Shown here: one piece after another, positions 4,642 to 53,301 of the stretch
Numbering within the stretch: the first letter of the stretch is position 1
How the letters are laid out: the number at the start of each line of letters is the position of its first letter
Source: Thermoanaerobaculia bacterium
GTDB taxonomy: Bacteria; Acidobacteriota; Thermoanaerobaculia; Multivoradales; Multivoraceae
Reading direction: 5' to 3'
Length of the DNA stretch: 64,000 nt
NCBI GenBank assembly: GCA_963666565.1
Contig: OY762911.1
Span: 2,144,001-2,208,000 of the forward strand
Program-made: the position numbers and the translations under genes
The notes under the pieces: generated by a model
Told to the model about the DNA's origin: nothing
What the model saw: the letters and a program-made list of their open reading frames with translations, nothing else
The model's database searches: none

Positions 4642-4672
4642 CGGTTGAGCGTCGCGATCCTATCGCCCGCGT

Positions 4673-6778
4673 TCAGCGCGCGGCTCGCCGGCCGAAGACG
4701 GCCACGCCGGTCGCCAGCACCGCCGCGGCGGCGTACGGCAGTGCCAGCAAGCGGATCATCACGGGCACGTGCGCCATCGTGTGGGCGAAGAAGACGGCGT
4801 ACCAGGCCGGGACGGACCAGCCGGCGGCGAGGATGCCGGCCCAGCGCCAGGGGTCTTCCAGGTTCCGCCAGCGGGGGAGGAGCCAGGCCGTGGCGGCGAT
4901 CAGCGCACCGGCCGCGGCACCGATCAGGACGAGGGCGACGACCGGCGAACCGAGACCGACCGTGCCGAGGTTGTCCCAGACCCTATCGAGGAACCGTTCC
5001 ACGGTGGGCCTGCCGGAGTAGAAGCCATCGATGTCCGGGTGAATCGAACTGCGGGGCGCGCCGTAGAGCCGGTGCGTCAACTGGTCCCAGAACTTGAACA
5101 GCACCGGTTCCCGGAACACGAACTCGGCGATGACGACGCGGAGCAGGAAGACGGCGCTCAGGCAGCCGACGTAGGCGCCGGCGCAGCGCAGCAGGAGGTC
5201 CCGCCGCCAGGCGCCGCGGTCCGCGACCAAGCCGCCGGCCGGGGACGGCGCCGCGGCGAGGACGAGAAGAACGCAGAGCAGGCCGATGGGCGCGCTGCCG
5301 AAGAGCAGCTCGTGCCAGGCGATCGCGGCGCCGAACCCGGCGAACAGGAGAACCTGGCGAGCCGGCGGCCAGTTCGCGACCCGAAGCGCCGGCACGGCGA
5401 TCAGCAGCGCGAGAGTCAGTACGTTCGAGGCCCCGGTGGTGAAGCTCCCGGCACGTCGCCCCAGGTCGAGGAAGAGGAACAGGCAGACAAAGAGCGCGCC
5501 GAGAGCCGCCGCCTGGAAGAGGTCCTCGCGCCAGCGCGCCGAGCTTTGCCTGGTGAACAGGAACGCCGCGCGCGCGACCGCGCCGGCGAACCCGAGCGCG
5601 AGGAGTCCGAAGGTCAGCGCCCGCAACGTGCGCCTCAGCCCGTCCACGCCGAGCGGCGGCAGCAGCCACTGCAGCATGACCCGCTGGCCGGCCCAGTACT
5701 GGTGGTAGAAGACGGTCAGGTAGTCCGAGTCGTCGACGGCGCCTTCGTCCAGGCGTTGCCGGAGCGCGTCGCAGGGGCGCTGGGGCCGGGTGTAGCGGTA
5801 CACGCGGCGGGGCGAGACGGTGCGTTCGAGCGTCGTGCCGCCGCGGTCGAGCGCCATCAGGCTCAGCAGGCAGTCGTTGAAGCGTTCGGCGGAGTCCTCG
5901 AGCGTGCGTTCCGGGTGGGCGTACGACGCGCGCAACGCCTCGGCCGCCGGTTCCGGATCGCCGCGGACGGCGAGCCAGTTCAGGCCCAGGAAGACGGCGG
6001 TGGCGAGCAGCGTCACGGCGGCGACGATGACCGCGGCCTGGAACGCGCCGAGGCGGCCGGCGCTTCCGGCGGCGGGCGACCAGAGCAACGTGCGCAGGAT
6101 GCGCAGGCCGTCGCGGAAGGCCCGCAGTTTGCTGGTCGATCCTTCGGGCCGGGCGAAGTAGGGGCAGTCGATCTCGTCCCAAGCCAGGCCGGCGGACGCC
6201 GCGAACAGGGTCATCTCGGTCTCGACCTCGAAGCCGTCCGAGCGCGCCGGGAACGACTCGACGAAGCGGCGCGAGAAGGCCCGGTAGCCCGAGAGCAGGT
6301 CGCGCACCCGGCGGCCGCAGCGCCAGCGGGCCAGGGCGCTGAACAGCCGGTTGCCGGCGCGCCGGAGCGGCGTGTAGGCGCCGGACACCGTGCTCCGGCG
6401 GGCGGCGACCACCATGTCGAGGTAGCGGTCGGACAGGGTCGAAACGAGACGGCCCACGCTGCGGGCGTCGTAGGTGCCGTCGCCGTCGGCCATCACGTAG
6501 ACGTCGGCGTCCACCTCGCGGAACAGGCGGCGGATGGCCCGGCCCTTGCCGCGTCGTTCCTCGACGATCACCGTCGCGCCCGCCTCCCGGGCCAGTTCCG
6601 CAGTCCGGTCGTCGGATCCGTTGTCGCAGACGTAGACCCGGGCGTTCGGCAGGGCGACCCGGAACTGCGACACGACGGCGCCGATCGTCGCCTCCTCGTT
6701 GAGGCACGGCAGCAGGACGGCGACCCGCCCGACGGGCCTGCTCGAGCGGACCTTCGCGCTGGATGATGCGGGGCTCAC
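4673..6778 (-). CDS. GT2 (GtrB/DPM synthase-like) glycosyltransferase fused to a polytopic membrane domain
   Basis: LLPCLNEE, CDNGSDD, MADGDGTY, DLLSGYRAFSRRFV and GFEVETE motifs in the first ~235 aa, followed by many hydrophobic helices. Confidence 0.85.
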   Translation of the reverse strand: MSPASSSAKVRSSRPVGRVAVLLPCLNEEATIGAVVSQFRVALPNARVYVCDNGSDDRTAELAREAGATVIVEERRGKGRAIRRLFREVDADVYVMADGDGTYDARSVGRLVSTLSDRYLDMVVAARRSTVSGAYTPLRRAGNRLFSALARWRCGRRVRDLLSGYRAFSRRFVESFPARSDGFEVETEMTLFAASAGLAWDEIDCPYFARPEGSTSKLRAFRDGLRILRTLLWSPAAGSAGRLGAFQAAVIVAAVTLLATAVFLGLNWLAVRGDPEPAAEALRASYAHPERTLEDSAERFNDCLLSLMALDRGGTTLERTVSPRRVYRYTRPQRPCDALRQRLDEGAVDDSDYLTVFYHQYWAGQRVMLQWLLPPLGVDGLRRTLRALTFGLLALGFAGAVARAAFLFTRQSSARWREDLFQAAALGALFVCLFLFLDLGRRAGSFTTGASNVLTLALLIAVPALRVANWPPARQVLLFAGFGAAIAWHELLFGSAPIGLLCVLLVLAAAPSPAGGLVADRGAWRRDLLLRCAGAYVGCLSAVFLLRVVIAEFVFREPVLFKFWDQLTHRLYGAPRSSIHPDIDGFYSGRPTVERFLDRVWDNLGTVGLGSPVVALVLIGAAAGALIAATAWLLPRWRNLEDPWRWAGILAAGWSVPAWYAVFFAHTMAHVPVMIRLLALPYAAAAVLATGVAVFGRRAAR

Positions 6779-45603: not shown

Positions 45604-46728
45604 ATGGCGAGAATCCTAGGAGATTGCGCCGTGGCGCGCGGCCGCGACAGCGCGCCGCGTACGGTGGCGCTGGCCGCGTTGCTGATCGTCGCGGGGAGCC
45701 CCGGCGTGGCTGAAGACGCGGCGGCCGACCCTGGCCTGACGGCGGTCGAGGGGTTGAAGGTCGGCCAGTTCACCTACGAGGAGCGCCCGACGGGCTGCAC
45801 CGTCGTGCTGGCGATGGACGGCGCGGTCGGCGCGGTCGACGTCCGGGGCGGCGCGCCGGCGACGCGGGAAACCGCGCTGCTGAGTCCGCACAACATGATC
45901 CAGGAACTCCACGCGGTGGTCCTGACCGGCGGCAGCGCCTACGGTCTCGACGCCTCCGGGGGCGTGATGCGCTACCTTGAGGAGCAGGACACGGGCTACC
46001 GGGTCGGCGCCGGGGTGGTGCCGATCGTCGTCGCCGCGTCGCTGATGGACCTCGGCATGGGCGGCGCCAGCAAGCCGCGGCCGGACGCGGAATGCGGCTA
46101 CCGTGCCGCCGCGGCCGCCGGTACCGGCCCGGTGGCCCAGGGCAACGTGGGCGCCGGCGCCGGCGCCACGGTGGGCAAGATGGGCGGCCGTGGATCGCGG
46201 ATGAAGGGCGGCCTCGGCAGCGCCTCGATCAGGCTGGAACAGGGTTCCTCGGCCGGCCTCACGGTGGCGGCGCTGGTCGCGGTCAACGCGGTCGGCGACG
46301 TGATCGACCCGGCCACCGGCCAAGTCGTCGCGGGGGTGCGCGGCCCGAACGACGAACTGCTCGACGCCCGCAAGCTGCTGCGGAGCGGCCTCGGCCGCGA
46401 CCGCCGCGCCGCCCGGCGGGAGGCGGAGAACCGGGAGAACACGACCATCGCCGTGGTTGCGACGAACGCGACCCTGAACCAGGCCGAGGCCACCCGCGTG
46501 GCGCAGATGGCGCACGACGGTCTGGCCCGCTCGATCGTTCCCTCGCATACGCCGGGCGACGGCGACACCGTGTTTGCGATCGCCACCGGCGTGCTTGAAG
46601 GGCCGGCGGACGTGAGCCGCATCGGCGCGCTCGCCGCCGAGGCGCTGGCCGACGCGGTGCTCAACAGCGTACGGCACGCGGAGTCGCTTCCCGGCGTCCT
46701 CGCCGTCCGCGACCTGCCGAAGCCGTGA
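45604..46728 (+). CDS. P1/S58 (DmpA-like) peptidase with signal peptide
   Basis: TGCTVV, DVRGGAPATRE, GGSAYGL, GNVGAGAG, ENTT and HTPGDGD. Confidence 0.9.
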   Translation: MARILGDCAVARGRDSAPRTVALAALLIVAGSPGVAEDAAADPGLTAVEGLKVGQFTYEERPTGCTVVLAMDGAVGAVDVRGGAPATRETALLSPHNMIQELHAVVLTGGSAYGLDASGGVMRYLEEQDTGYRVGAGVVPIVVAASLMDLGMGGASKPRPDAECGYRAAAAAGTGPVAQGNVGAGAGATVGKMGGRGSRMKGGLGSASIRLEQGSSAGLTVAALVAVNAVGDVIDPATGQVVAGVRGPNDELLDARKLLRSGLGRDRRAARREAENRENTTIAVVATNATLNQAEATRVAQMAHDGLARSIVPSHTPGDGDTVFAIATGVLEGPADVSRIGALAAEALADAVLNSVRHAESLPGVLAVRDLPKP

Positions 46729-47510
46729 CTGCGCCCCGGGATCCGTTTCGTCTCGACGGCCGGACGGTTGCCGTCATCGGCGCCGGCTCAGGCATCGGCG
46801 AGGGCGCGGCCGAGGCCTGCGCCCGCCAGGGAGCGCACGTCGCCTGTTTCGACCTGAACCTCATCGCCGCCAGGGCGACGGCCGACCGGATCGTCGCCGC
46901 GGGCGGCAGCGCGGAGGCGGCCGAACTCGACGTGCTCGATTCGGAAGCGATGACGTCGGCGCTTGGCGCGCTGGACGATCTTCAGGGCGTCGTGGCGACT
47001 CCGGGCGTCAACGTCCGCAAGCGCCTGCTCGACTACCAGCCCGACGAGTTCGACCGGGTGGTGACGCTCAACCTCCGCGGAGCGATGTGCGTGCTCCAGG
47101 TCGCTGGAGGGCTGCTCAGCGACGCCGGCGGCGGCAGCATCGTGCTGCTGTCCTCCATCCGCTCCCAGGTCGTCGAGCCGGGGCAGGGCGTCTACGCCGC
47201 GACCAAGGCCGGCATCGTCCAGCTCGCGCGAACGGCCGCGGCCGAACTCGGCGGCGCCGGCATCCGCGTCAACGCGCTGGCGCCCGGCGTCGTCGACACG
47301 CCGCTGACGAAGCCGATTCAGCAGAACGAGGCGTGGAACCGGGCCTACGCCGGCAAGACCGCGCTGGGCCGGTGGGGAAGGCCGGACGAGATCGGCGCCG
47401 CGGCGGCGTTCCTCGTCTCCGACGCCTCGAGCTACATGACCGGCGCCGTGCTCTTCGTCGACGGCGGCTGGACCGCCATCGACGGCCGCTTCGATCCTCC
47501 GGCGGGCTGA
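46725..47510 (+). CDS. SDR oxidoreductase
   Basis: GAGSGIG, YAATK and VDGG. Confidence 0.9.
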   Translation: MTAPRDPFRLDGRTVAVIGAGSGIGEGAAEACARQGAHVACFDLNLIAARATADRIVAAGGSAEAAELDVLDSEAMTSALGALDDLQGVVATPGVNVRKRLLDYQPDEFDRVVTLNLRGAMCVLQVAGGLLSDAGGGSIVLLSSIRSQVVEPGQGVYAATKAGIVQLARTAAAELGGAGIRVNALAPGVVDTPLTKPIQQNEAWNRAYAGKTALGRWGRPDEIGAAAAFLVSDASSYMTGAVLFVDGGWTAIDGRFDPPAG

Positions 47511-49303: not shown

Positions 49304-50485
49304 ATGAGAGAGCCATGGGTCGATGAGATTCATCGTGCTGCCGAACGGGGCGATGCCGACGAGCAGAGCAAGCTCGGTACGCTCTACAACGTCGGCACGG
49401 GTGTGCAGCAGGACGCCACGGAGGCGGTTCGCTGGTACCGCTTGGCCGCACAGCAGGGCCACGCCGAAGGGCAGATGCACCTCGGTATGTGCTACTTGCA
49501 CGGGCATGGCGTGCGTCAGGACCCCACCGAGGGGATTCGCTGGCTTCGCCTTGCCGCCGAGCAGGGCGACGCCCGCGCGCAGACGTACCTTGGCGCTTGC
49601 TACATGGACGGCGACGGCGTCCGGCAAGAGGCCACCGAGGCGGTCCGCTGGTATCGCCTTGCCGCCGAGCAGGGCGACGCCGACGCGCAGGTAAGCCTCG
49701 GAATCTGCCACATGGGCGGCGACGGCGTCCGCCAGGACGTCTTCGAGGCGGTTCGCTGGTTTCGCCTTGCGGCGGAGCAGGGTAACGCCGACGGGCAGAC
49801 AAACCTGGGAATCTGCCACATGCGCGGCGACGGCGTCCGTCAGGACGTCTTCGAGGCGATTCGCTGGTTTCGCCCTGCGGCAGAGCAGGGTAATGCCGCC
49901 GCGCAGACAAGCCTCGGAATCTGCTACGCGAACGGCGACGGCGTCCAGCAGGACGCCGCCGAGGCGGTTCGCTGGCTTCGCCTCGGCGCGGAGCAAGGCG
50001 ACGTGGACGCGCAGGAGGCGTTGGCAACGCTTGAGCCTCAAGGCGAGCACGGGCGCGATTCGCATGGACCAGGAAAGGCAGCGGAGGAACTGATTGTCAG
50101 TCTGGTGCGGAGATGGCCCAAGGCGACGAAGCTGGTGCGAAAGTTGAGCAGTCTGTTGCGGAAGTGGCCCGGGCTGCCGAAGTGGAAGAAGCGGCTGATC
50201 GGATTGGCGGCTTTTGTTGTCCTGATGTTGTTTGTGAGGTTGATTTACGGCCCATGGGTCGCCGGAGTACTGGTCCTGGTCATCTTCTTGTTGGCCGTGT
50301 CGGTCTTCGCGATTTGGTTTGGTTGGATTTACTTCATTACGGGCTGGAACATTGTCGAATGCCGAGGCTGCGGTCGGTCGATGTTGCTGCACCACTTCAG
50401 AAAGCAGCGCGGCTGCCTGAGCTGCGGCACGTCCCTGGAGCCGGTGCCAACCGGAGAACGCGGGTCTTTCTTTGATCGCTTCTAG
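49304..50485 (+). CDS. Sel1-repeat protein with C-terminal TM helices and Zn ribbon
   Basis: About six 36-aa AAEQG.A.AQ..LG.CY..G.GV.QD..EA.RW repeats, two hydrophobic segments and CRGC...CLSC. Confidence 0.88.
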   Translation: MREPWVDEIHRAAERGDADEQSKLGTLYNVGTGVQQDATEAVRWYRLAAQQGHAEGQMHLGMCYLHGHGVRQDPTEGIRWLRLAAEQGDARAQTYLGACYMDGDGVRQEATEAVRWYRLAAEQGDADAQVSLGICHMGGDGVRQDVFEAVRWFRLAAEQGNADGQTNLGICHMRGDGVRQDVFEAIRWFRPAAEQGNAAAQTSLGICYANGDGVQQDAAEAVRWLRLGAEQGDVDAQEALATLEPQGEHGRDSHGPGKAAEELIVSLVRRWPKATKLVRKLSSLLRKWPGLPKWKKRLIGLAAFVVLMLFVRLIYGPWVAGVLVLVIFLLAVSVFAIWFGWIYFITGWNIVECRGCGRSMLLHHFRKQRGCLSCGTSLEPVPTGERGSFFDRF

Positions 50486-52356
50486 ACTCCTTGAACAAGG
50501 GGCGTCTTAACAGTTGAGTCAAGTTTGGTTCGGGGTGTCCGTGTCGATTCGGCGTGACGGAGGTCGGCCTCAGGCTGCGAGTCGCTGTCCTCGCCAAGCT
50601 CTTTGGACCTCGCGGTCGTAGCTGGCGACGGTTCTTCGTAGCCGGGCGTTGGCTTCCGGGTCGAGGGTGGCGGACATGACGGGGCCGAGCACTCGGGCGT
50701 GGGTCCGGTGGTAGGCGAACGCTACGCGCAGTCCCCAGTCGGTGATCCGGTAGCGGTGGGTGCGCGGAACCCGTTCGACGATTCCCCGCAGTCGCAGTCG
50801 GCGCAGGTCGTAGGTCATGCGGGAGGGTCCGTAGCGGTCCGGCGTGAGTCCGCACAGACTGGCGACCGCGGGCCGCAGGTCGCGGTTGCGGAAGCCGTTG
50901 GGCAGGAGGCTGAAGCGCAGCAGGGCGGCGAAGAGACTCTGCACCCTGCGGTCTCCGAAGCGAAGCGCCGAAGCGCGCTGACCCGAGATGCACCGCGGAC
51001 GGTGCAGATCGTCGAGCGTTTCGGCTCCGAGCAGACAGTCGTGGCTGAGAGTTTGGACGCCGAGCAGGCGTCGGTTGGCGGCGAAGCCGACCTTCTTGAG
51101 GTCATCGAGGTTTCTCAGCAAACGACCGACATCGAAGTCGTAGGTGTCGTTGATCACCGTCTCGGTGCGCAGGGCGCGCCCTTCCTTGTGGTACTGCTTG
51201 ATGCGCGAGTGCTTGTAGTCGACGTGCAGCGACGGGGAGACCCCGTCGGTAATGACGCGGGTGCGATACCGCGAGGGGGTGCGTCGCGTGACGCGGCGCT
51301 TGAAGATCAACTGCACGTGCTCGGGCCGTCCCATGTCGAGGTGCTCGCGCAGCACCTCCTCGAAGAAGACCCGACCCTGCACCGGGCGGTCGAAGACCTG
51401 GGTCAGGGCGAATTCGGCCTGGAGGATCGAGACGGCGTAGCGGATGCCCCGCCGCCGGTCGCCGGCGGAGAACGGATGCGGCAGGCGAGCCAGCCACTTG
51501 CGCAGCAGCGCGTCGATCTTGTCCGCGTCGAGGCCGTCGGCGAGCCGCTGCATCGCCTCCGGGTCCGAGCAGCGCAGGATGCCGTTGTCCAGCGCCTCGT
51601 ACTCGATCCCCCGCTTGCTCAACTGGCGCTTGAGGTACTCGTGTCCGTTGATGCACAGCTTGGCGTTGTAGGGGAAGTACGAGCAGAACTTCAGGAAGAA
51701 CGGACCGAAGTCGTCGTCGAACACGTAGAAGTAGTACTGGTTGACCATCGCCGTCGAGTGCACCAGCCACGGATAGCCCGCGTCGGTCGCCGAGTCGTAA
51801 CGACGCTCGGTACGCAGCACCCGAGCCTTCTCCTGCGCCTTGCCGACGTACAGCACCCCCTCGCCTCCATGCCACCGGCGAAGGTACTCGCGGGTGCGGT
51901 CGTCCTTGCGCTCGCCGCGCCGAAACGGGACGATGTCGATCCGATGCTGCCGCGCGTAGCCCTTGATCGCGGCCACGAACCGCCTCGTCATCGGCGCCAT
52001 CAGCACCGACGACGGCACCTGCGCGCCCCGCACCTCCCGGAAGAACCAGGCCGCGCCCGCGCCACGCTGAAGCACCGGTACGTAGACGTTGAGGTACATC
52101 CGATCGACGCACTCCAGCGTCAACGACACATGCTCCTCAAGAACCTCGGCTGCCGTGCGTGCTACCTTCATCAGCGGACTCCGGTCGATGGGCTTCTCAC
52201 CGGCCAGCTTAAGGCCACCTTCGCCGCAGAGCGACAATACGGCGGATTCACTCCGCAGCTGAAGCAGCGACCGGAGTCCGATCGACGCCAAGGCCGAGGC
52301 CGACCACCGCCGCGAACATGCTCGTCGGTCTGAGGCGAAGCCTCGTTAGAGGCTTG
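50482..52356 (-). mobile_element. Putative single-gene mobile element without terminal inverted repeats
   Basis: Minus-strand CAAGCCTCTAA in a hairpin (AAGCCTC-TAAC-GAGGCTT, 52338-52355) upstream of the ORF, and CAAGGAGTCTAG (50493-50482) downstream. Confidence 0.45.
50570..52171 (-). CDS. Uncharacterised ~533-aa protein with a Rep_trans-like motif and C-terminal winged helix; putative transposase
   Basis: LECVDRMYLN, YYFYVFDDDFGPFFLKFCSYFPY, SRIKQYHKEGRALRTE and MTYDLRRLRLRGIVERVPRTHRYRIT (wHTH-like). No DDE or recombinase motif recognised. Confidence 0.6.
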   Translation of the reverse strand: MKVARTAAEVLEEHVSLTLECVDRMYLNVYVPVLQRGAGAAWFFREVRGAQVPSSVLMAPMTRRFVAAIKGYARQHRIDIVPFRRGERKDDRTREYLRRWHGGEGVLYVGKAQEKARVLRTERRYDSATDAGYPWLVHSTAMVNQYYFYVFDDDFGPFFLKFCSYFPYNAKLCINGHEYLKRQLSKRGIEYEALDNGILRCSDPEAMQRLADGLDADKIDALLRKWLARLPHPFSAGDRRRGIRYAVSILQAEFALTQVFDRPVQGRVFFEEVLREHLDMGRPEHVQLIFKRRVTRRTPSRYRTRVITDGVSPSLHVDYKHSRIKQYHKEGRALRTETVINDTYDFDVGRLLRNLDDLKKVGFAANRRLLGVQTLSHDCLLGAETLDDLHRPRCISGQRASALRFGDRRVQSLFAALLRFSLLPNGFRNRDLRPAVASLCGLTPDRYGPSRMTYDLRRLRLRGIVERVPRTHRYRITDWGLRVAFAYHRTHARVLGPVMSATLDPEANARLRRTVASYDREVQRAWRGQRLAA

Positions 52357-52524
52357 CCGTAAGGGGCAGCGCCTCGGCGCGGTCCCGGGTCTCCCACATC
52401 ATCATCGGCAACTCCTTCAAGTGCCAGCAGCGGGCCGTCCTGGACGTGCCGTCGAGCGGCTCCTTGAAGCAAGGCCGTCGGTGCTCCGGCATCCGGTCAG
52501 GGTGGGGGTAGACTCTGCGCTGCC

Positions 52525-53301
52525 ATGCTCGGCTACGACGACCTTTTCCGACTCGACGGCAGGACGGCCGTCGTCACCGGCGCGTCGTCCGGCCTCGGCG
52601 TCGTCTTCGCGCGGGCGCTGGCCGCGGCTGGGGCTTCCGTCGTCGTCTCGGCGCGGCGGCTCGACCGGCTGGAGCAGCTTGCCGCGGAGATCGAGGCCGG
52701 CGGCGGGCAGGCCCTCGCCGTCACCTGCGACGTTGCGAGCGAGCAGGACGTCGACGCGCTCGCGGCGAGGGCGGTCGACCGTTTCGGACGCGTCGACGTG
52801 CTGGTCGCGAACGCCGGCGTCTCCGACCCGCGCCCGGCCGAGCAGGAACCGCTCGACGTGTGGCGGCGGGTCGTGGCGGTCAACCTGACCGGCGTCTTCC
52901 TGTGCAACCGCCGGTTCGGCGCCCTGATGCTGGAGCGGGGATCGGGCTCGATCGTCAACATCGCGTCGGTGCTCGGTGTCGTCGGCGCCGGCCAGATTCC
53001 GCAGGCGTCCTACGCGGCGTCCAAGGGCGGCGTGGTCAACATGACGCGCGAGCTCGCGGCCCAGTGGGCCCGGCGGGGCGTGCGGGTGAACGCGATCGGC
53101 CCGGCCTGGTTCGAGTCCGAGATGACCGAGGAGATGTTCGCGTCGGACCAGGGCGTGCGCTGGATCCGCCGCAAGACGCCGATGGGCCGCCCCGGCCGCG
53201 GCGAGGAACTGGCCGGCCCCGTCGTGTTCCTGGCCTCCGACGCGTCGAGCTACGTCACCGGCCAGACGCTGCTCGTCGACGGCGGCTGGACCGCGATCTA
53301 G
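52525..53301 (+). CDS. SDR oxidoreductase
   Basis: TGASSGLG, ANAG, YAASK and VDGG. Confidence 0.92.
   Translation: MLGYDDLFRLDGRTAVVTGASSGLGVVFARALAAAGASVVVSARRLDRLEQLAAEIEAGGGQALAVTCDVASEQDVDALAARAVDRFGRVDVLVANAGVSDPRPAEQEPLDVWRRVVAVNLTGVFLCNRRFGALMLERGSGSIVNIASVLGVVGAGQIPQASYAASKGGVVNMTRELAAQWARRGVRVNAIGPAWFESEMTEEMFASDQGVRWIRRKTPMGRPGRGEELAGPVVFLASDASSYVTGQTLLVDGGWTAI

Follow-up and report, generated by a model that had tools for sequence, protein, structure and literature searches.

What moves a one-gene unit of DNA whose ends are unrelated and whose protein belongs to no named family? The question is raised by a 64,000-nt stretch from a Thermoanaerobaculia bacterium (assembly GCA_963666565.1, contig OY762911.1, positions 2,144,001 to 2,208,000), called the window below, in which positions 50482-52345 of the minus strand hold a mobile element of 1864 bp with a single gene for a 533-aa putative transposase. 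The reading favored here, at a probability of roughly 0.6, is that the unit is an autonomous insertion sequence (IS) of a large unnamed family, and that its one protein combines an N-terminal Rep_trans-type nuclease of TATA-binding protein (TBP)-like fold with a C-terminal winged helix and works by a tyrosine single-strand mechanism. The broader claim, that these are the first transposons driven by a Rep_trans or TBP-fold tyrosine nuclease and form a transposase class apart from the DDE, DEDD, HUH, serine, tyrosine-recombinase, and Cas1 enzymes, is given slightly better than even odds.

The unit is mobile. One scan of reference genomes returned at least 526 relatives, 80 loci were retained for analysis, and nine genomes each carry 2-8 of these 80. 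Copies within a genome (1810-1867 bp) lie at different sites and differ by 0-3 bases, and their identity ends abruptly ~170-183 nt before the ATG and ~50-95 nt past the stop codon. A frame of at least 520 codons is open in 60 of the 63 delimited relatives. Many family members sit on contigs of 1.76-2.1 kb, which is the signature of an assembly-breaking repeat. The family also includes miniature derivatives of 97-134 nt, in which ~30 nt of left end is fused to ~67-100 nt of right end and the gene is deleted. They stand head-to-tail with full copies and have one tetranucleotide in common with them (L027/L028 2740-2836, L020 2692-2825, and L003 2707-2826), and they resemble non-autonomous members of the family itself. 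In two further loci (L019 and L040), the right end of one element abuts the left end of another.

The ends of the element are sharp and asymmetric. Comparison of copies within multi-copy genomes, together with 66 unique insertions, delimits the element from the C of CGAGGC through the G of a terminal CTAG, and blastn finds a single copy in the window. CTA(G/A) directly precedes the left end in 66/66 insertions, as CTAG in 37 and CTAA in 29, and is followed by CGAGGC-NNN-GCCTCAGACCGACGAG; the window copy has CTAA at 52346..52349 on the minus strand. Right ends follow the pattern AAACTTGACTCAACTGT...CAAGGNNTCTAG and terminate in CTAG in 63 of the 66, the remaining three being mispicks of a loose search pattern. 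The terminal CTAG of the window copy (50482..50485, minus strand) supplies, on the plus strand, the TAG stop of a Sel1-repeat gene at 49304-50485, and two short contigs (L055 and L067) stop precisely at this tetranucleotide. Terminal inverted repeats are absent from the window copy and from the 66 insertions, the two ends being unrelated beyond CTAG, and no target duplication beyond CTA was found among the 66. The flanks are otherwise not conserved, save that A is weakly preferred on the upstream side.

These limits bear on a first-pass annotation of the window, which had proposed a rolling-circle-type element at 50482..52356 without terminal inverted repeats, which it could not place in a standard IS family. 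All the strings that it quoted are present in the sequence. Its right boundary of 50482 is exact, while its left boundary lies 7-11 bp too far out. Homologues do begin and end at the CTA(G) motifs (63-66 of the 66 insertions), and no known IS family, inverted repeats or target duplication was found.

The left end carries a conserved block, CGAGGCTTCGCCTCAGACCGACGAG (52321..52345, minus strand), which is near-invariant in 39 element lineages with proteins 58-92% identical and still recognizable in plasmid copies from Caballeronia, Rhodococcus, and Mycobacterium. It contains the hairpin GAGGC-TTC-GCCTC (52332..52344, minus strand), with a 5-bp stem and a variable 3-nt loop. Over 17 sequences, 85/85 cells of GAGGC-N3-GCCTC are paired, with one compensatory A-T to G-C change (GGGGC/GCCCC, Rhodococcus) and one wobble; the covariation is modest, since four of the five pairs never vary and 49/500 shuffles reach the observed value. 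This conserved hairpin (52344-52332) sits one step inside the 7-bp hairpin that had been described earlier with the left motif CAAGCCTCTAAC (AAGCCTC/GTTA/GAGGCTT, 52338-52355). The outer hairpin does fold (-13.8 kcal/mol, z = -3.2) but is not conserved: 'CAAGCC' and the outer arm (52350-52356) are flanking DNA, and pairing of more than 4 bp between flank and end occurs in 1/62 insertions, the window copy alone. The 7-bp hairpin with CTAAC in its loop is an accident of this insertion site.

At the right end, a box, AAACTTGACTCAACTGT (50510..50526, minus strand), is kept in most of 32 right ends and in many copies begins at the stop codon or just past it. A sub-terminal palindrome, CCTTG-TT-CAAGG (50489..50500, minus strand), follows, of which the CAAGG half is the conserved part. 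The own stems of the right ends have a mean of 3.53 bp, more than shuffled 5' segments give (2.94 bp; 0/2000 shuffles reach the observed value), but swapping the 3' arms yields stems that are just as good (3.61). The palindrome of the window copy folds no better than shuffles as single-stranded DNA, and RNAalifold gives no consensus on the 32 right ends because the short stems shift register between lineages. The inverted repeat reported earlier as CCTTG-AA-CAAGG at 50489-50500 is present, and overlaps the right-end motif CAAGGAGTCTAG (50493-50482), but is unstable as a single-stranded hairpin. Of the two CAAG/TCTA motifs proposed as a pair, CAAGGAGTCTAG is a family feature, with CTAG in 63/66 insertions, and the CAAG of the left one belongs to flanking DNA. 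In three loci the terminal motif of the right end is tandemly duplicated (L021 4657-4682, L023 ~4672-4693, and L033 ~4669-4694), for example as ...CTCAAGGAATCTG then CTCAAGGAATCTAG; these duplications may be footprints of slipped termination or abortive insertion. Beyond the left end, and in the wrong order for an element end, window positions 52460-52479 resemble the right-end palindrome in 16/20 bases, which is not significant in blastn and probably due to chance, as is probably the word TAGACTC at 52505-52515, also in the wrong order.

The junctions point to the target. The fourth base of the left tetranucleotide is uniform among identical copies in a genome, being CTAA in 7/7 copies of one genome and CTAG in 5/5 copies of each of two others. 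Right ends facing ordinary DNA always have CTAG, and the tetranucleotide between the miniature and the full copy in L003 is CTAA. Taken together, these three observations argue that the fourth base moves with the element. The CTA of the left junction is probably derived from the target, with the fourth base (G or A) traveling with the element's 5' end, and the simplest reading of the sequences is that the target is the palindrome CTAG, cut somewhere 5' of its last base. CTAG is depleted 12-fold in the window, with 15 occurrences against 177 expected from base composition at a G + C content of 70%. The TAG stop of the Sel1-repeat gene lies inside the terminal CTAG, and a reconstructed empty site gives the same stop codon; after insertion, one side would read CTA-R (TAG/TAA) and the opposite side CTAG, and a stop codon in the target would thereby survive on either strand. 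Targeting of stop codons as such was considered, as the CTAG of the reconstructed site ends an open frame of at least 100 codons in 23/56 sites, and dropped, because the long spurious frames of GC-rich DNA were uncontrolled for.

Neighboring elements lend this target further backing. Four copies (L004, L023, L032, and L033) stand directly after a left flank of ...GACACA(C/A)CA|CTAG, and in L004 (1726-2831) the shared flank is the end of a frameshifted IS630-type element with DDE_3 and helix-turn-helix (HTH) domains. DDE_3 is confirmed in this one of the four loci, and L023 shows the matching inverted repeat. The element family and IS630-type elements share CTAG sites. Beside the copies with the '...GACACACCA|CTAG' flank, no second gene of the element family was found. 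In L033 (4682-4710), the final 13 nt of the right end recur in inverted orientation as the right flank, in a tail-to-tail arrangement with the palindromic CTAG in common. Insertions also occur inside CTAG-rich short repeats, in the left flanks of L001, L002, and L056 and the right flank of L089 (TAGCTATAG..., CTACCTAGCTACCTAG), and such repeats may be insertion hot spots or else scars left by successive insertions. The right flank of L028 (4647-4710) is a long near-perfect palindrome of REP-like appearance, and its first 30 nt are common to L027. In L003 and L014, the gene is broken at about residue 444-454 and resumes ~1.5 kb later, presumably interrupted by another insertion.

The second part of the answer concerns the protein. 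An AlphaFold model of the 533-aa chain, built on a 31-sequence alignment reaching 29% identity, has a pLDDT of 87 and a pTM of 0.75. Residues 1-345 of the model comprise two beta-alpha-beta4-alpha units with ~50 residues inserted between them, which is the TBP-like arrangement; a long helix, a winged helix at ~400-480, and two C-terminal helices come after residue 345. A fold search of the Protein Data Bank (PDB) puts all four 4CIJ chains at the top (E = 2e-3 to 5e-3, probability 0.69-0.96). 4CIJ is the rolling-circle initiator of pSTK1, a Rep_trans protein, so that the structural similarity to Rep_trans which the first-pass annotation had expected is found, with low TM-scores and a negative profile comparison. 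The other PDB matches within the first 29 ranks have probabilities of at most 0.47, and lower ranks hold a MarR-like regulator on the winged helix (0.96, rank 30) and an archaeal TBP (0.51, rank 48). The HUH relaxase TrwC appears in this search at a probability of 0.08 only. A search of BFVD gives seven hits at E ≤ 1e-3, the best at 4e-6, and its matches include viral TBPs, inovirus Reps, VETF-like factors, and several uncharacterized entries. Two BFVD entries, A0A345MNV4 (an inovirus PF02486 Rep) and A0A2N9QVX7 (a phycodnavirus TBP), are those used in PMC13107129 to link the archaeal Rep-Arvir family to Rep_trans. An RNase-H-like transposase or integrase is not among the matches listed for PDB or BFVD.

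The model also places a candidate active site. The candidate catalytic hairpin SRIKQYHKEGRALRTE, already singled out as a catalytic-looking tyrosine motif in the earlier annotation, spans residues 322-337 (51161..51208, minus strand), and beta-strands 322-329 and 333-340 form the hairpin that bears the candidate Tyr327 (codon 51191-51193), accompanied by K325, K329, R335, and E337. In the 31-sequence alignment, which extends down to 29% identity, K325, Y327, and R335 never change, and conservation is at least 90% for K329 and E337. For Rep_trans, a 2017 review (PMC5714925) gives the motifs N' (D), I (RxD), II (T/SxY/ExG), III (YxKxxE), and IV (W/LxRxE). A partial comparison by eye, with a RepC alignment as reference, finds counterparts in the same order and at different spacing, an agreement that is not supported by an alignment program. 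In motif N', F-D46-A-M of RepC is set beside I-D23-R-M on the first strand of the element family, and in motif I, R-L-D142-L-A-F-D beside D152-x-D154-F-G. Motif II, not compared in RepC, reads S314-x-H-x-D318 in the element family. Motif III is S-x-R-x-I-R-x-Y191-N-K in RepC and S322-R-I-K-Q-Y327-H-K329 in the element family, and motif IV is W-R-x-E214 and L-R335-x-E337, on the next strand, respectively. The spacing from Tyr to Arg in this comparison is 8 in the element family versus 21 in Rep_trans.

The C-terminal segment is a predicted winged HTH DNA-binding domain (50732..50974, minus strand; about residues 400-480), with a helix and wing in the model and weak matches to MarR, PadR, and iron-repressor families. 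The domain had been proposed from the first reading; by sequence it is weak in the window protein (E = 0.03), but a relative of 25% identity passes HTH_5 at 27.3 bits against a 22-bit cut-off.

A number of results weigh against a Rep_trans-type nuclease. The Foldseek TM-scores are low (0.16-0.34) and the E-values modest, and a model of residues 1-350 alone is poor, with a pLDDT of 66.8 that falls below 50 in residues 250-350, where the catalytic hairpin lies. Among 24 genome copies, Y327 is at least 90% conserved but not invariant. The glutamate of motif III stands at +3 and not at +5, and motif IV reads L-R-x-E rather than W/L-x-R-x-E. PF02486 is unmatched at E ≤ 1 in the window protein and five distant relatives and at E ≤ 0.1 in 31 members, and RepC, scanned together with the five distant relatives, scores 41.7 bits against the 29.6-bit PF02486 cut-off. 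Comparison with two Rep_trans alignments by hhalign gives a probability of 0.1 (E = 0.46-0.68), with shallow profiles (Neff 1.3 and 2.4) drawn from Firmicutes plasmids only. DUF7845 (PF25227) is likewise unmatched at E ≤ 1, where the presence of this model in the Pfam copy is deduced from neighboring accessions. The nick proposed here falls next to the conserved hairpin, whereas pT181 is nicked in the hairpin loop. No strand bias was detected against local GC skew over ~6 kb flanks (25 vs 33 of 58, p = 0.36), which is a weak test of the orientation bias relative to replication known from IS200/IS605. On this evidence, the 533-aa protein is predicted to have a Rep_trans-like fold and to work like Rep_trans, yet by sequence it is not a Rep_trans member. 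A precedent in its favor are the Rep-Arvir proteins, with the same layout of a Rep_trans-like domain and a MarR-like winged helix, which PMC13107129 describes as equally invisible by sequence and confirmed by mutagenesis.

The alternative that survives best, although unlikely, is that the protein is a Rep_trans-like initiator of a tiny rolling-circle replicon, plasmid- or satellite-like, which integrates at CTAG and is copied from there. It draws on the same fold evidence (4CIJ and BFVD), on tandem and head-to-tail junctions that resemble replicon multimers or circle junctions, and on known relatives by fold that are replication initiators and relaxases (PMC5714925). However, no free form was seen, each of the 80 loci lies on a chromosome or a large replicon, the protein has no match in 50,697 phage records, and the plasmid matches listed with most of the protein are on replicons of 56 kb to 1.95 Mb. 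Short contigs stop at the element boundaries and are not closed on themselves, and the unit contains neither a second-strand origin nor another gene.

Movement of the IS630 or Tc1-mariner type is a further possibility, and an improbable one. CTAG is the classic IS630 target. Here the element would be cut and pasted at CTAG with duplication of TA, by a DDE site unrecognizable by sequence. The junctions can be read as C-TA-[element]-TA-G in 63-66 of 66 insertions, copies of the element adjoin IS630-type elements, and the protein has invariant Asp and Glu residues. A duplicated TA thus fits the junction letters, and this alternative is set aside only because there are no terminal inverted repeats, the ends being unrelated beyond CTAG, and no DDE fold: no DDE Pfam domain is matched by the window protein or the 31 members, and the listed fold matches include nothing RNase-H-like. 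Asymmetric ends with a hairpin at one of them are, moreover, typical of single-strand nucleases.

Just as improbable is a TBP-fold protein that does no more than bind DNA or regulate, or a protein of other chemistry, with another enzyme moving the element. Half of the fold matches in BFVD are non-catalytic TBP-like transcription factors, and no sequence link to any nuclease exists. The unit nevertheless has one gene, intact in 60/63 copies, and is spread over phyla without an obvious common helper, and the Tyr, Lys, Arg, and acidic residues are kept down to 29% identity, which would be needless for a pure DNA binder. Finally, an immobile chromosomal gene with chance motifs nearby, which the single copy in the window might suggest, is already refuted by identical copies with unrelated flanks in nine genomes and by the miniature derivatives.

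The transposition reading, a tyrosine nuclease acting on one strand, can be laid out as a sequence of steps. We infer the tyrosine chemistry, the strand that is cut, and the nick position, and also the mode of movement, copy-out or peel-and-paste. First, the protein would recognize the left-end hairpin block and the right-end box with its winged helix and nuclease domain. Tyr327 would then nick one strand at the left end, inside CTA|R or immediately before it, and become covalently linked to the 5' phosphate, helped by a divalent metal that conserved acidic residues (candidates D23, D152/D154, E253, and E337) would hold. The strand would be displaced or copied as far as the right end, whose CTA|G is identical, and a second transesterification there would free the strand, probably as a single-stranded circle with the expected junction, from right end to left end, of ...CAAGGNNTCTA|R CGAGGC.... 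The freed strand would be joined into a CTAG target elsewhere, leaving CTA + R on the left and CTAG on the right without a true target duplication. Such a single-strand mechanism accounts for the unlike ends, the lack of inverted repeats and of a real target duplication, and the inherited fourth base, as well as for the shared tetranucleotides in tandem and miniature arrays, the small cis requirements, and the families of near-identical copies. The nicking at an origin and a terminus that had been suggested from the window alone is supported as an overall interpretation; the nick, however, is probably within or before CTA|R and not in a hairpin loop, and the target would be CTAG.

When compared with known systems, the best structural match of the element protein is the Rep_trans/MOBT group (PF02486), which includes pT181 RepC, pC221 RepD, pSTK1 Rep, ICEBs1 NicK, Tn916 Orf20, and CTXphi RstA. 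Like these, it carries its candidate Tyr on one beta-strand and R-x-E on the next, and in the comparison by eye its acidic residues come in the same order. Rep_trans proteins nick at a hairpin and form a 5'-phosphotyrosine link in a reaction that depends on Mg or Mn. In the element, a hairpin lies beside the presumed nick, and the CT-A-R of the site also occurs in the pT181 origin core (L081 4363-4378), where pT181 is nicked. In contrast, the element protein is twice as long, has ~150 extra residues between motifs I and II, adds the winged helix and C-terminal helices, and has no detectable sequence homology to Rep_trans; its home is a multi-copy chromosomal insertion element, a role that was not found reported for Rep_trans. 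The element protein resembles Rep-Arvir (DUF7845, PF25227; PMC13107129) in placing a MarR-like winged helix after an N-terminal TBP-like nuclease domain and in being tied to Rep_trans by structure alone, via the same BFVD entries. Unlike it, Rep-Arvir is archaeal, belongs to viruses and plasmids, and is not known to transpose, in a comparison made with its published description.

Among transposons, IS91 has unlike ends, no inverted repeats, no duplication, a tetranucleotide target, and tandem arrangements. The element has these features in common with IS91/ISCR and Helitrons, including a tetranucleotide target at one end, but its enzyme is of an unrelated fold, with no HUH match, and neither Y2_Tnp nor Zn_Tnp_IS91 is matched by the window protein or the 31 members; nor did one-ended read-through products turn up among the 80 loci. 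With IS200/IS605 it shares a sub-terminal hairpin, a short fixed cleavage sequence, the absence of duplication, and precise junctions of right to left end. In contrast to the Y1 TnpA of ~150 aa, its enzyme has 533 aa and is not HUH (Y1 HUH TnpA is unmatched by the window protein and the 31 members), and its hairpin is invariant rather than element-specific. With IS630 it shares the CTAG target, a TA on both sides, and positions side by side with IS630-type elements, and the letters equally fit a nick inside CTAG; it differs in lacking inverted repeats and a DDE_3 domain.

The gene itself (50570..52171, minus strand, stop codon included) starts with ATG at 52171 and encodes MKVAR... to give the 533 aa that had been called before. 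A 573-aa form with a TTG start is unsupported, as the homologues all begin at M-x-V-A-R. Upstream is a 5' leader from the left end to the ATG (52172..52320, minus strand), the start codon being ~170-183 nt downstream of the left end in all copies. A promoter scan found no sigma-70-like promoter, and Rfam gives nothing above threshold on the element, with only a sub-threshold match to a eukaryotic scaRNA that is taken as chance. The protein falls in no Pfam, NCBIfam, PHROG or PADLOC family, and a sequence search with it retrieves no solved structure. A word-indexed search gives at least 8000 matches, of which the best 120 are 62-100% identical and mostly 531-537 aa long. An exhaustive search gives at least 11,019 cluster representatives (50% identity) at E ≤ 1e-3, 5,414 of them at E ≤ 1e-10 and 1,236 at E ≤ 1e-30. 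The named family members are all 'hypothetical protein' save one 25%-identical relative called an ArsR regulator, a name due to its C-terminal winged helix passing HTH_5. The ESM Atlas holds unnamed clusters only, and in the nearest named one HTH_5 occurs in 12% of members. Two longer proteins appear as fused forms, one with a featureless 700-aa tail and no Pfam hit and the other matching 23% of the query and carrying unrelated Pfam domains; both are probably gene-calling artefacts.

The hosts are diverse. Metagenome-assembled genomes (MAGs) with the family belong to Acidobacteriota (Vicinamibacterales, Thermoanaerobaculia, Bryobacterales, and Terriglobia), Alpha-, Gamma-, and 'Delta'-proteobacteria, Acidimicrobiia, Planctomycetota, Verrucomicrobiota, Gemmatimonadota, and Binatia, and one named member is in a Chloroflexi MAG. 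The phyla of the at least 526 relatives in reference genomes include Acidobacteriota, Pseudomonadota, Actinomycetota, Planctomycetota, Verrucomicrobiota, and Gemmatimonadota. Large plasmids of cultured Rhodococcus, Burkholderia, Caballeronia, Paraburkholderia, Mycolicibacterium, and Mycobacterium carry the family as well, and the end architecture persists at protein identities of 60% (Caballeronia), 51% (Rhodococcus koreensis), and 38% (M. riyadhense). Among the 80 retained loci, those nearest to the window copy are in a Candidatus Multivorans MAG (92%) and a Thermoanaerobaculia MAG (91%).

The neighbors of the window copy are ordinary chromosomal genes, namely the Sel1-repeat gene (49304-50485), a short-chain dehydrogenase gene (52525-53301), and genes for a CitMHS/TrkA-C transporter and a TonB-dependent receptor. 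The product of the Sel1-repeat gene bears a CxxC...CxxC motif at its C-terminus and also has a hydrophobic segment. Paralogous short-chain dehydrogenase genes at 46725-47510 and 52525-53301, ~5 kb apart, flank the region. A 544-codon open frame on the plus strand (50699-52333), antisense to the transposase gene, was rejected as a second gene, being the usual artefact of 70% G + C DNA.

In a full-text literature search, in which most subscription journals are missing, neither this element nor any transposon of Rep_trans type is described, and the family may have been named before. According to the 2017 review (PMC5714925), Rep_trans proteins reside in plasmids, phages, and conjugative elements, and the abstract of a 2022 preprint (10.1101/2022.12.15.520654) lists HUH-based groups only as Rep-mobilized transposons. 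If the reading proposed here is true, a rolling-circle initiator has been recruited into transposition a second, independent time, in parallel to HUH in IS91, IS200/IS605, and Helitrons, and the Rep_trans fold has been put to this use like the unrelated HUH fold. The family is abundant and has escaped annotation in bacteria of soil and sediment, cultured Rhodococcus, Burkholderia-group, and Mycobacterium strains among them. Its members number thousands over at least eight phyla, and giving it a name would correct the annotation in thousands of genomes and would explain many assembly breaks of ~1.8 kb. The strict 4-bp palindromic target, the small cis needs (~30 nt + 67 nt in the miniatures), and the single protein make the element attractive for studying site-directed insertion of single-strand DNA, and perhaps for using it.

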